From NCBI GenBank assembly GCA_004431415.1, contig QPMI01000645.1:62001-126000 (forward strand): a DNA stretch of 64,000 bases. The letters run 5' to 3'. Source of the stretch: Cyanophora paradoxa CCMP329 (lineage: Eukaryota > Plantae > Glaucophyta). The notes beneath the pieces are model-generated. The model was not told the DNA's origin, did not search any database, and worked only from the letters and a program-made list of their open reading frames with translations. The translations under genes were made by a program, and so were the position numbers. Positions 5,945 to 31,144 of the stretch are shown here, in pieces. Numbering within the stretch: position 1 is the stretch's first letter; each line of letters begins with the position of its first letter.

Positions 5945-7964
5945 CTACTGAAGCTCGTATTCGATTTCGTACTCCGGGAGGGCTTGGAACGGGTGGAAGA
6001 TAATCACTGCGCATGCACATGCCGGCGCAGCGCAGACCGAGTCAGTAGCTTACGAGGCCTAGGGGGCCTTTCTTTGCATTCTTCGGCCCCCGCACCTTCG
6101 GTCTGATGGACTCCCAGGTTGGGGGTCGCCTCCTTTCGGCCCGAGACGAAGATCGAGTCGTGCCCCTGCACAGCGGACGGCCGCGTCAACGTTGAGCGCC
6201 AAGGCGCGGCTTTAATTTAGAGGACGGAGAGATGGTCGGATCAAGCACCGGGCTGGGTAGGATCCAGTCGTGCATCTCGTCTTGGCGGGCGAGGTCCCGC
6301 TTGACGAGGAGGGGGTTCCCGAGGGAGAGCCTGCACGCGAGCACCTTCCGCACCCGCGGCGCCTGAACGTGTGCAGAAACGGGCTCAAACTAAACGGAGA
6401 AACACGAGCACTTATTATTAACGGGCCCGTCTCAGAGCCGCACCTTTGCAGACGGGACGACGTACTGGTCCGACTTGCTCGCGACTTCGGCGAAGTACGT
6501 CCCGAGGCCGAACATGTGACACCGGCTCTGCGCGCGCTTCAATTTTCGACGACAGAGAGCTTTAAAAAATCAGTGATCGTACCCAGACGTGCTGCTTACA
6601 CCCCGCGCTCGTACACTTGCTGTTCAAAAGAAGCGCAGGACTGTCAGCGAGCTCAAGCGTGCCGCGGCACGCATGCGCTTCTTTCTAAATACGGTCTCAC
6701 CGGCAATCGACTGTGCAGAGGCTCGGACTCTTGTCCGGGAGGCCGCGGGAGCGAGGGCAGTCCGACGCCGCGCAGAAGTCGTCCGGAGGGACGAACCCAT
6801 CGCTGTAGATGCTCTCGAGGATGTCGACGCGGGTCCCGTGGTAGTAGCGGATCTCGGCAGTCGCCAGCTTCGCCTTGCCCCTCCGCTTCTCGATCGACTC
6901 CCGGCGCTCGTGATACCTGCGCATGACATCGAATATTAGTAGTCTGGAGCCTGCAGGAGGGAGCGTACGCGTGCGAGCGCTTATCGTCTAGATAGGCGAA
7001 TGAAGATTGATAATTATGACGGCCCGGCCACGCACCGCTGGCACATTTCCTTGTTGACGATGCGCCGGATGGCCCGCACGAGGGGCCGCCTGCCGCTCGG
7101 CCAGTGGCGAAGGAAGTGCTCGCTCACGTCGTCGAAGGCCGCCCCGGGGCCCAGGGCCTTCAGCTCCCACTGCCGCGTCGACGTCGGCGCCGGCTCCTGC
7201 TTTCCTCCCCCAGCTGCAGCGGACGCTCGAGCAGGATGGAGGTAGGGACAGCTCGGCCTGAGGAAACGAATGTTCTGCAGCCTGCGGATTGAGGCCCATT
7301 ATATATAATTAGAAAATAACGAATCCAACAGGAATAAAAACCGAATCCGAGGCACCTGCAATACCCTTGCGCCCAGTTCCTGCACACTTGTTTGCCTTGG
7401 CTTTCCTTGCAGGCTTTTGCAGGGCTTGCTTGAGAGCGAGCGCTTACGTTTCGCGAATCCGAAGCCCTCGCGATCGGACGCGAGCTCGAGCTCGAGGAAC
7501 CAGCGTCGGCGGGTTGCACGCGTGCGCGCGCTTCCGCAGAGGCGGCATGCGATCTAGGTCTGGATTCCAAGCGTGGACGCACACGAACGTCGCTGAGATC
7601 TACAATGCGCGATCAGATTTGTAATCAGTTCACTAATTCATGAACACACCCACACTGAACAGCGAAGCGTCGAAGGGCGTCGGAGACGACGCATTAGAAG
7701 ACGCTGAAGCGGGATCCAAATTTGATTGCTCGATGTCTAGGTCTGATAAGAGATTGAATTAATCAGTTCATCTCCATCGATATCGGTTTGAAATGTAAAG
7801 TCAATTGCAATCACGAATCGGGTTTGTATTCGAATTGGCAATTGCAAATCATGCTCACCAAGCATGTCGATCATGTCGTCGAAGTCCGATTTGCGGGCCC
7901 GCGGCCGGCTGGGGACTGCCTTTGCACTAGCTATAGTGTCATCAAACGCTGCGTGTGTCGGCAT
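5945..7964 (-). CDS. CCCH zinc finger + PARP/ART catalytic domain protein (PARP-A), multi-exon; 5' end may extend to ~8540
   Basis: Spliced product: CRNWAQGYCRPSCPYLH; FDDVSEHFLRHW...VRAIRRIVNKEMCQR|YHERR...RYYHGTRVDILESIYSDGF; Cys-rich insert; HMFGLGTYFAEVASKSDQY; KVLACRLSLG; GHDSIFV; QTE|VIIFHPFQALPEYEIEYELQ* (stop 5945-5947). H-Y-E triad. One frameshift in a G-run near 7210. Confidence 0.85.
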
Positions 7965-8750
7965 ATATTAGAAACGGCAAGCGTATGATTTTTGCGAAAC
8001 CATTCATATGCATGATCAAAGGCCATACCGAAAATACTTGAGTCGAACTGCGCTGAAGAGCTACCGCTCACGCCTCCGTGTTCAGTGGGCCCCCGATCGC
8101 GAAGCTGCTGTTCATGTGTGCGCGCACTTGTCGCAATGCCAATTGACGCAGGTTGCTGAACATGTATATGTGCACTGGCTGACCGATTGCGAGTTTGTAC
8201 ACTATTCGCGATCGAATCCTGTCCAGGTGCGCATAAGAGGACAAGACTTGAAGGCTAGACCTTCGCGAGATAAGAGCTCGAGATACCTTCGAGCTCGTGT
8301 GCGCACGCATGCAGGCATTCTTCGCTTTCTCGATGTTGTCCAAGGAGAACCGCCCTTCAGACGCTAATGCAGCCACGGCCGATTCGACTTGCATGTCGGT
8401 CGCAACAAGAAGCCTTTCCCCGAAGCTCCGATTAGATCAATAATCGATTATAGAATCATCGAAATTTAAAAGACCTTTGCAAGGCTTCTTGGCATTGGCG
8501 GCCACGGGTTTTGTGCGCCTCTGACGACAATGTATGAGCATGCGCAGATATATGAGCTGAGCGAATCCGGATCCGGATTTATATCAACGATTTTGAGAAG
8601 ACGGATCCGGATCCGAGAAGGCCAATACCAGTTATTTCGGCCATTGAGTATCCCATGTCCTTTAGTCGCCGAATGATATCCGAAGAGTGCAGGCGGTGTC
8701 CGCGGGTATCATCCTGCAGGCGTATGCATTAAAAACTATTCACGTCATAA

Positions 8751-28240: not shown

Positions 28241-31144
28241 ATGCCGGCCTCGGCTGCAGGTGCAATGGACAATAGCTGCTTCATTGCGGGGGAGCCCGTC
28301 TCAGAAGTACCGGTCTACGACGGGTGCGCGCCTGCGTTGCTCTACGCCTGGTCTACATAATCATAAACAAATTTCCATGCGATCGAAAGAAGCTTAAGCA
28401 ATTGAAAGCGCAGACCGTGGCCAGCGGCATATTATGCGCTGGCGGGCGCCGCGCTCGGGGATGCCCTCGGGGCGCAGTTCGAGTACGAGCGGCCGGAGCG
28501 GGTGCGCGGCATGTGGCCGGGGCGGAAGTGTCCCCGCGCGCCCTGCGGCCTCGTGTGGACGGACGACACGCAAATGAACCTCTCCGTCATCCACTGCTAT
28601 CTCGCGTGCGCTTCCGCGCGCCAATGTTATTAATCTGGATGCACGTGCGCTTCCGCGCGCGAACCTGCACGTGCGATATGCGCAGAAGAGATCATCAGCT
28701 GCGAGGATCTAATAAATTTAAATTAAAAAATTGATCGCAGGCGCGGCTCGCTGGACGTGGCGTACCTGAAGCGCCTCTGGCTCGCCCTGGCAGGCGCTCG
28801 CTGGTTCGAGGAGGCCGGCGAGTTCCAAGGTGCCTGAGTGCAAGTCGAATATATGAAATCGAATTTATAGTTCTAACTATCCGCTGTCAACATGCAGGCA
28901 AGCACCAGCTTGGGGGGTTTCGCGGGACAGGGGCGAATTTCCGAGAGACCGTTCGACTGCTCGAGGCCGATCCCGACCGCGATGCGAGTAGCGACACGTG
29001 CGTTCTGCGTTAATTCGCGCGCCGAGCCTCAGGACCTCGCACTTTTATTACATTAGGCAAGCGCTCGCAAAGAGAGATTTATTGCAGCCGTCTGCAGGGC
29101 GGGGAACGGGGCTGTCATGCGCAGCGTCGCCATCGCCGTGGCGGCCTGGCGGGAGCGTGACAGGGTCCGCTCGGTTTGCATTGTAAACATAAAATTAATT
29201 CGCGTTTGAATTGCTTCGCTGTGTCGAATCCGTTCATTTAATCCACATCGCCAGGAGCGGCGGGCGGAGGCCCTCTGCGAGGACGTGCTCCGCTGCGGCC
29301 GCGTGACGCACCACGCGCCCCTGGGCGTCGTACCCGCCTTCGCCTACGCGTACCTGCTCATGCAGGTTCGAATTCGCGCTCAATCCTCAAGCCGCCACTG
29401 CAGCGCTGCGCATGCGGTAAAATTAATTTCGCACTCGTCGCACGTGGCCGCAGTGGATCGGGCCCCCGCCGCCGCCGGACGGAGCCAGAGCCTCGAGCCA
29501 GAAACTCTTTTCGGAGCGGGATATTGCCGAGCAGCTGCAGGAGCTCGCTGACCAAACCAGGAAGGTGCGAGCGATTGTGTATTACATGCACGCTTATTTG
29601 TATAAATTAGACGAACGCGCGAGGGACGCAGGTGGAGAAGAAAGTGTTCGCCAGCGCGTGGTTCCGGAGGCGGGCGGGCTTCGCCCCGAAAGAGGAGCAC
29701 CTCGTCTCCAAGTGCCTCCGCAAGTCCGCCCCGCAGAGCCCGAGAGCTACGAGCGTCTTAGGCCCCAGCTTCTAGATCTTGGAGTCTTCTAGCTTGTGCT
29801 CAGCGCCGGCATGCGTGCGCCCAGGCTCGCGGAAGTGGACTGGCGCCGCGGCTCGCCGGAGGCCGCCCTCGCGCGGGCCTCCCGCATGATCATCGCGTTC
29901 TGGCAGCCCCACGCGAAGCGCGAGGTGCGCATGCCGCAAAAACAAACAAGCGCAAAACGCGCAATCGACGCGAAGTTCGAATTCGTTTAACGTAGTTCTC
30001 TGCCAGGTGGAGGGCTTGAACGCGTGCTTCGGGCCCGTGTCGGCCTGCGGGGCGATCATGGCGGGCCTGCTGCTGCGAGGCTCGCAGCCCCTCGGGGCCT
30101 TGCAGGTCCGCCCGCGATACGCTTTCTGCAGATTTTGTTACGGCAGGGGTGATTCCCTAGCCTAATCCGGCGCCGAGCTAGTCTGAGACGCCGAGGATTC
30201 TCGCCTTTCGTGACAATTTCGCACGCGAAACTAAATAAATGCAGCACGTCTACCGCTACGGGGAAGATACCGACACGACGGGCGCCCTCGTCGGTCCGCG
30301 CATCCTCCGCCGCCTTTAGTCTGCCTTTGCGCAGCGAGCCGCCGAGTCGCTAACGTTAAGTTGCGCGCGGCGCTTTGCGGCGGCAGGCGCGCTGCTCGGG
30401 GCGCGCCACGGGAGGCTCCGAGATCTAGAGGGGCGCGCAAGCGCAGCTGCAGGCCGCGGGCTCCAGAGGGATCCAGAGGGCGACTTCGGCCCGCAGGCGA
30501 GTCAGCTCACGGCTTGTATATTGAAAATTTAAAGCCATCATGGCATCGGCATCGATATCATCGTTTAATTTTGGTGAACCTCTTCGAATTCCGCGCGGCA
30601 GGTGCTGGGCCACACCGCGTGCGGCGCGGACCTCGCGGGGGTCTTCGCCCGCTTCGTGGTGCGCGTCGCCCGCGGGCGGTTGCGATCGCGCGGCGGGCTC
30701 GCGATTGGGCGCGCGGCGGCGGTGGCCGCCGACGAGGGTGGCGATCGCGAGCTCGCGGTCGAGGTCGAGGCCGAGGCCGAGCTCGATGAGGAGCGCGCGT
30801 TTCTCGCGCTGGAGGAGCGCGTCGCGCGCGAGCTCCTCGCGCTGCCGCCGGGGCGCCGGCCCTCCCACTACCGCCCCGCCCGCTCCCTCGCGCCCGCCGA
30901 GTACGAAGCCTCCAAAGCAGCCAATCCATGTTCCAGAATTATCCTCAAGGTCTCCCAGGATCAAGGCGGAGCTGGAGCGGAGGCTGGAGGCGGAGCTACA
31001 GCTCGAGCTCGCGGCGTTGGACGAGGACGGGGCGCGGGGGCTCTACGGCCGCTTCTTCGCCGCCGACCGCAACGTCGCCCTCGCCGCCCGCCTCCCCGGT
31101 GCACGCGCCTGCCGCCCCGCCCCGCCCCATGGGGCCGGGCCTAG
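28241..31144 (+). CDS. ADP-ribosylglycohydrolase (ARH/DraG family) with C-terminal extension, multi-exon
   Basis: Spliced motifs: LAGAALGDALGAQFE, WTDDTQM, AGNGAVMR, RVTHH, GEDTDTTGALVG|ALLGARHG. All canonical Mg-binding motifs are present. Confidence 0.88.

Follow-up and report, generated by a model that had tools for sequence, protein, structure and literature searches.

We analyzed a 64,000-nucleotide stretch of the genome of the glaucophyte Cyanophora paradoxa CCMP329 (GenBank assembly GCA_004431415.1, contig QPMI01000645.1, forward-strand positions 62,001–126,000; hereafter the window, numbered from its first nucleotide). Positions 5945–31290 hold a cluster of genes with three PARP domains, one MacroD-type macrodomain and one ADP-ribosylhydrolase (ARH) domain with its catalytic motifs. 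Four or five adjacent ADP-ribose genes, the majority of which are predicted to bind RNA as well, are likely to be a defence cluster, and we put at about even the chance that the locus is a functionally coherent, partly decayed conflict cluster in which RNA would direct ADP-ribosylation against viruses or mobile elements. A firmer conclusion concerns the largest gene, which by its predicted domain order belongs to a ZNFX1 subfamily with PARP domains in place of the ubiquitin-ligase module of vertebrate ZNFX1.

Gene organization of the ADP-ribose cluster

For region 5800–31400, a small gene finder that allows for splicing was trained on the region itself and its output was refined by hand, and domains were confirmed with Pfam on exon-level frames; all gene models are predictions. 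The resulting order is gene A (−, 11047–5945), an apparently inserted block containing gene B, gene C (+, 16939–24368), gene D (−, 27571–24913) and gene E (+, 28265–31290). The ADP-ribose genes form two head-to-head pairs, A/C and D/E: the predicted starts of D and E are 694 bp apart, and those of A and C are 1.9 kb apart once the block is subtracted. The stops of C and D are separated by 545 bp. The models for A, D and E are free of stops and frameshifts. Several introns have GC donors, including two within the macrodomain of gene A and two within D.

The first-pass annotation counted five of six consecutive genes acting on ADP-ribose; Pfam bore out the domains except for the left CCCH finger, but the macrodomain and the left CCCH-PARP are probably one gene, which would make the count four of five. 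PARP (ARTD) family membership was assigned from PF00644 together with the catalytic triad, read from an alignment with 32 PARP domains of homologues; the triad is H-Y-E in A and C and H-Y-Y in D. All three PARP genes also carry RNA-type modules, either fingers or a helicase.

The earlier proposal that tandem duplication alone cannot explain the cluster held up well. The PARP domains of A, C and D share only 25–29% mutual identity, and outside these domains the four models have just one 13-residue CCCH match in common (E 0.6). Between-gene comparison with blastn found no DNA-level repeat, only one local palindrome. Recent tandem duplication therefore fails to explain the PARP genes and was ruled out.

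Gene C belongs to a ZNFX1-PARP subfamily

Gene C (16939–24368, +) has 26 modelled exons and would encode approximately 1830 amino acids if a break described below is skipped. It combines a ZNFX1 domain, a superfamily 1 (SF1) helicase and NFX1-type Cys/His repeats, the features that define the ZNFX1 family, with a single PARP domain; Pfam placed ZNFX1, AAA_11 and AAA_12 at 18192–22414 (+) and PARP at 23773–24051 (+). The gene is single copy by read depth in the short-read DNA run X3, and no close paralogue was returned. Of the two EukProt Cyanophora models that match it, g22037 has 808 aa and stops exactly where the break lies, and g22038, of 209 aa, begins later; one exon matches EukProt model tig00021518_g22037.t1 at 100% identity. 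In vertebrate ZNFX1 the same domain, the helicase motifs and the Cys/His repeats follow one another as they do in C, but it carries an RZ E3-ligase module, whereas in C the PARP domain comes last and the gene stops at 24368, no RZ finger was matched on its exons, and the copy in the window is broken.

Homologues were collected using the published N-terminal half of gene C as the query, and the 149 best homologue clusters were scanned with a local PARP profile effectively built without gene D. Eighteen were flagged, 17 of which were confirmed by Pfam, the majority carrying a tandem pair of PARP domains. An RZ finger was matched in 0 of the 18, compared with 5 of the 26 top matches scanned. Four of the 18 are from named organisms (Limulus polyphemus, Paralvinella palmiformis, Gefionella okellyi and Hirondellea gigas, the last without Pfam confirmation), and UniRef labels two ZNFX1-PARP homologues as PARP. 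The PARP domain of C shows 39–44% identity to those of the six homologues nearest to it in other eukaryotes.

In trees built from the helicase only, the PARP-bearing rows and the window copy fell on one side of a branch with a Shimodaira–Hasegawa-like approximate likelihood-ratio test (SH-aLRT) value of 99, and vertebrate ZNFX1 fell on the other. PARP-bearing rows accounted for 9 of the 12 on that side in a 105-row FastTree, from which a motif filter had removed 45 rows, and for 17 of the 21 in a 47-row IQ-TREE of hand-picked rows with P0128 dropped. The four exceptions in the latter were one row with a degenerate PARP-like end, two that stop before the place of the PARP domain and one of 1330 aa. 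The trees are midpoint drawn and C is a long branch, so a single origin of the subfamily is likely, short of proof.

A literature search of papers available without subscription found no description of ZNFX1-PARP fusions or of the present cluster. In the available text of two ZNFX1 papers (bioRxiv 2025.09.05.674436; PMC13710534) the term "PARP" occurs 0 times, and in that of a PARP survey (PMC4245714) "ZNFX1," "NFX1" and "helicase" occur 0 times. The same portions of the two ZNFX1 papers describe human ZNFX1 as linking RNA binding to ubiquitin ligation through its RZ module; by analogy, the output of the subfamily would be ADP-ribosylation.

Linkage was examined in loci retrieved by searching with the subfamily alignment, 76 of them from metagenomes and 27 of them viral. 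Only one of these 103 loci (L001) has a full ZNFX1-PARP gene, and tblastn of the window macrodomain, ARH and PARP domains against all 103 matched only the PARP domains of L001 itself. The L001 gene (4036–9897, +) is an intact, intron-less open reading frame (ORF) of 1954 codons with a cold-shock domain, a ZNFX1 helicase and two PARP domains; the four other long ORFs of the locus have no Pfam match. Elsewhere in the set, an Argonaute gene (L028: 1033–3924, −; ArgoN, ArgoL1, Piwi) lies on the strand opposite a ZNFX1-like gene, approximately 5 kb upstream of it, and a Sir2-family gene (L014: 16292–17206, +) lies approximately 4 kb downstream of another.

A deletion disrupts the helicase of gene C

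The first-pass annotation cast the ZNFX1-PARP protein as an RNA sensor; its domain architecture stands, but its intactness does not, owing to a deletion with a stop and a frame change. At 21332–21525 (+), the sequence from helicase motif IV to the ITIL-PY-GQ strand is compressed into 194 nt, at most 64 codons, with both ends present in different frames and a stop between them. The same span measures 88–108 aa in 124 of 149 homologues, and the other 25 failed to match the search pattern. A regional profile matched gene C at profile positions 2–34, 83–98 (weakly) and 114–158, with nothing in the intervals, and no AG that could serve as an acceptor occurs between 21416 and 21518.

A 15.6-kb short-read contig from X3 is identical to the assembly across 16366–25400, with 0 differences and 0 gaps, which makes an assembly error an unlikely cause of the break, although the run and the assembly may share a strain. 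Beyond the lesion, the remaining 25 exons are open and follow the family profile, and all helicase motifs and the PARP triad are retained; the lesion thus looks recent. The product of gene C is predicted to be either truncated before the PARP domain or helicase dead. Decay of a methylation type was considered and rejected because CpG is not depleted across the cluster.

Gene A probably joins a macrodomain to a finger-PARP

Gene A (5945–11047, −) is predicted to have 23 exons in an open chain of GT/GC–AG introns of 50–119 nt and to encode 1143 aa; its 5′ end may extend to approximately 11560. In order, the protein would contain an acidic N terminus, the MacroD domain, a Ser/Ala-rich linker with a UBA-like stretch, a CCCH finger and a PARP domain. 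The gene is single copy (depth 73 in X3), and no close paralogue was returned.

The macrodomain (9841–10675, −; PF01661, with Macro matches on three exons at 9897–10455) retains the MacroD fold motifs GGGGVD and GIYGF, and its best Protein Data Bank (PDB) match is human MACROD2 (E 5e-7). The NAAN of MACROD2 is aligned to NAAK in gene A, which places Lys where the catalytic Asn is found. According to PMC10221186, the residues needed for MacroD hydrolase activity include an Asn or Ser ahead of loop 1. NAAK also occurs in all four members of an unrelated cluster, which makes it a natural variant. The domain may bind rather than erase ADP-ribose.

Pfam detected the PARP domain of gene A (5945–7036, −) at 6444–6536 (E 2e-5). 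Between HGT and GTYFA, at 6583–6790 (−), it has a Cys/His-rich insert of approximately 40 aa that is absent from the aligned ZNFX1-PARPs and is possibly a zinc-binding loop. The CCCH finger, C-x7-C-x3-C-x3-H, is split by an intron and is a motif-level assignment only (Pfam E 3.7). Three small exons of the linker (8287–8713, −) encode what we take to be a UBA-like stretch, with 0 Pfam matches on the three separate exon pieces.

Whether the two halves of gene A are joined depends on the linker, in which coding bias is weak. Splice-site matrices trained on 34 domain-supported introns outside the linker were used to chain exons across 7560–8830. The best chain recovered six of the seven modelled introns exactly, plus the acceptor of the seventh, with a score of 13.8. 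Of 200 Markov simulations one scored at least as high; so did two of 25 genomic controls, including one that overlaps gene D on its sense strand, and 10 in-sample gene regions scored 18.8–46.0. It is fairly probable, judging from these splice signals, that the macrodomain and the left CCCH-PARP are fused in one gene; the less probable alternative is two genes, with the first ending in a stop at 8751 or 8068.

Genes D and E form a putative writer–eraser pair

Gene D (24913–27571, −) is predicted to have 11 exons encoding 634 aa, with Pfam matches to PARP (25064–25474) and zf-CCCH (26935–27183). It contains a CCCH finger, a RanBP2-like finger (motif only), further Cys/His fingers and the H-Y-Y PARP domain, and it runs beyond the CCCH-PARP originally delimited, to about 27571. 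PARP triads without Glu are typical of mono-transferases.

Gene E (28265–31290, +), which likewise runs past the end first given for it, to about 31290, has 15 predicted exons encoding 573 aa, and PF03747 (ADP_ribosyl_GH) covers 28406–29548. The domain match and the metal-binding motifs TDD and DTDT assign it to the ARH/DraG family. As in ARH3/DraG-type hydrolases, GDALG, the Glu, TDD, GNGA and DTDT are retained, and the Glu aligns with that of fish ARH3; unlike them, E has a C-terminal extension of approximately 190 aa matching no known family. The macrodomain and the ARH had both been put forward as enzymes that remove ADP-ribose, a role that the motifs of E support and that the NAAK of gene A makes doubtful for the macrodomain.

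The two CCCH-PARP genes had been likened to PARP12, PARP13/ZAP and PARP7. In both, CCCH fingers precede a PARP domain at the C terminus, an architecture that Pfam confirmed for D and that is seen at motif level in A. Unlike the animal proteins, the fingers are atypical, D adds the RanBP2-like finger, and A has H-Y-E and a macrodomain; no WWE domain was matched by Pfam on the exon frames of the cluster. In our PARP tree, built without reference human PARPs, D is a long branch. The ancestor of PARP7/11/12/13 is traced to early animals in the available text of PMC4245714, so the likeness of A and D to these proteins is probably convergent. Gene A also resembles the macro-PARPs PARP9/14/15 in having a macrodomain and a PARP domain in one predicted chain, but it has a single MacroD-type domain with NAAK, plus a CCCH finger, and the fusion itself is a prediction.

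A further comparison is with prokaryotic defence islands and ADP-ribosyltransferase/hydrolase toxin–antitoxin pairs. As in these, a predicted writer stands beside a predicted eraser and several putative conflict genes lie together with mobile elements around them; unlike these, the cluster genes are intron-rich eukaryotic genes without an operon.

An apparently inserted block and the flanks of the cluster

The block between A and C (12404–16392) has very high-copy short repeats at its ends and raised read depth. X3 coverage is 95–150x at 12469–16387 versus approximately 70–75x in the flanks and rises into the thousands at the terminal repeats (12404–12468 and 16361–16392). The ends share a 9-bp inverted match (12432/16389); a search for a target-site duplication identified none. 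This block of approximately 4 kb, at about double the depth of its surroundings, is likely a mobile element that landed between genes A and C, whose starts diverge. An X3 contig joins 12434 to 16346, and the block is a candidate two-copy mobile element. Gene B (12683–14300, −), predicted within it, is AT-rich with an uncertain 5′ end and no Pfam family; the best Atlas feature score of one exon, 0.88, was to unnamed clusters and is uninformative.

The flanks had been described as a retrotransposon, an Mx-like fragment, RING ligases and an endogenous virus, and all but the Mx-like fragment were found. A long terminal repeat (LTR)-type retrotransposon remnant with RT-RNaseH and integrase occupies 1–4330 (+), its RT, RNaseH and integrase domains lying within 1–3348, directly followed at 4640–5300 (+) by the 3′ part of an intron-containing gene that neither Pfam nor the PDB assigned to Mx. 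On the other side are a RING gene (approximately 32000–33000), a zf-TRAF gene (approximately 42000) and, at 53000–64000, an AT-rich endogenous virus-like block with an rve integrase, an SF1 helicase, an A32 ATPase, a RING gene (one of the flanking RINGs noted earlier) and DUF5710; from its gene content we take it to be Polinton-like. The block has two DUF5710 genes and a 1163-aa ORF without a Pfam match (56914–60402, −), and it continues past the end of the window.

Viral origin of the cluster was also considered and rejected: the 27 viral loci gave weak helicase matches without a PARP, Macro or ARH match, and a search with the PARP exon of D gave a single 24-residue match.

Clustering relative to chance

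The available part of PMC6704402 reports 25,831 Augustus genes in a 99.94-Mb, probably haploid genome. With this gene number, uniform placement and assumed family sizes, the expected number of five-gene windows with at least four ADP-ribose genes is 3e-5 for 100 family genes, 0.018 for 500 and 0.28 for 1000. These low counts make uniform chance an unlikely source of the cluster, and clustering beyond uniform placement holds if the family has fewer than approximately 500 members.

A proposed model for RNA-directed ADP-ribosylation

If the cluster is coherent, RNA that is foreign or aberrant would be bound by A and D through their CCCH/RanBP2-type fingers and, where C is intact, by its helicase. 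Binding would activate the attached PARP domain, and the RNA or its proteins would be tagged with ADP-ribose. D would make mono-ADP-ribose, and the macrodomain of A would more likely read the tag than erase it. The ARH encoded by E, divergent from D, is likely a co-expressed antidote, and removal of tags would limit self-harm. In this genome C is predicted to be helicase dead or truncated before its PARP domain, which would leave A, D and E as the members still able to work. The cluster probably arose as genes came together in a GC-poor stretch rich in mobile elements, and not by recent tandem duplication. GC is 54%–64% within the cluster versus 75%–80% in two flanking genes, and the genome average is given as 67.6% in the available part of PMC6704402. 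Human ZNFX1 and human zinc-finger PARPs are described as antiviral in the accessible portions of bioRxiv 2025.09.05.674436 and PMC13710534, and of PMC11784840, respectively.

Innate antiviral ADP-ribosylation is mostly vertebrate knowledge. Several observations weigh against the co-inherited immunity locus first proposed. Gene C lacks at least 24 codons between helicase motifs IV and V, which leaves its second RecA-like domain incomplete; the replacement of the loop-1 Asn by Lys makes an eraser role for the macrodomain of A doubtful; and the apparently inserted block divides the divergent A/C promoter region. At L001, a single locus of 19.9 kb, there is no Macro, ARH or other PARP neighbour, a point that also counts against a coherent, partly decayed cluster, as do the next three. 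No published protein models were returned for the macrodomain exon of A or the PARP exons of A and D, in what was a weak search. GC-poor stretches nearby, at 35.4–38.6 kb and 50–53 kb, are without such genes. If the three PARPs are treated as products of a single old expansion in place, the genome-wide expectation for an ARH adjoining a PARP is 0.005–0.31, depending on family size. As for the surroundings, the virus block is approximately 22 kb from the cluster, endogenous viruses are widespread in protist genomes according to the available text of PMC10120064, and the proposed Mx-like fragment gave 0 fitting Pfam matches and, for 5126–5296, 0 PDB matches at E ≤ 10. Contigs from three presumed-RNA runs gave only short repeat matches over 5500–25400 and are uninformative on expression.

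Alternative explanations

The strongest form of the defence hypothesis is a working, co-regulated and co-inherited sensor–writer–eraser island in which the break in C is a recent strain-level loss. The two divergent pairs, the full writer and eraser set and the state of C, with one lesion in its 26 modelled exons, fit such a history. The broken sensor, the NAAK macrodomain, the block between A and C, the unlinked gene at L001 and the unsupported Mx-like flank do not, and we consider this form unlikely. A true island of this kind, in which an ancient ZNFX1 subfamily answers foreign RNA with ADP-ribose rather than ubiquitin alongside two finger-PARP effectors and an ARH antidote, the genes being joined in divergent pairs and the sensor allele having been lost only recently in this strain, would go beyond what we favor and is offered tentatively, as a minority view.

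Passive pooling is about as likely as a working island. Large, fast-turnover PARP, Macro and ARH families might collect in gene-poor, repeat-rich regions with no shared pathway, several of the genes possibly being silent. The retrotransposon and inserted block adjoining the genes, the virus farther away, the broken C and a third-codon GC that differs between A and D (0.65) and E (0.87) are all compatible with pooling, but under uniform placement it would need approximately 1000 family members, A and C are single copy with no close paralogue returned, and A, D and E are open.

Far less probable is housekeeping RNA control through ADP-ribosylation without a link to viruses (stress granules, RNA decay or small-RNA silencing of transposons): ZNFX1-family helicases also function in RNA silencing and the fungal-type ZNFX1 locus L028 adjoins Argonaute, but the loss of C is tolerated and, to our knowledge, eukaryotic housekeeping genes are rarely clustered by function.

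Implications for the ZNFX1 family and eukaryotic conflict genes

Returning to the partly decayed conflict cluster, each of its components comes from a known family; what appears new is their combination and the ZNFX1-PARP subfamily. Most bacterial defence systems came to light through guilt-by-association mining, and if conflict genes of protists cluster by function, the approach could serve eukaryotes as well; the present locus is a candidate for such clustering rather than proof of it. That ZNFX1-PARP occurs in organisms as different as a horseshoe crab, an annelid, a malawimonad and a glaucophyte suggests an old coupling of RNA sensing to ADP-ribosylation, swappable with a ubiquitin output, and the intact members of the subfamily are directly assayable.

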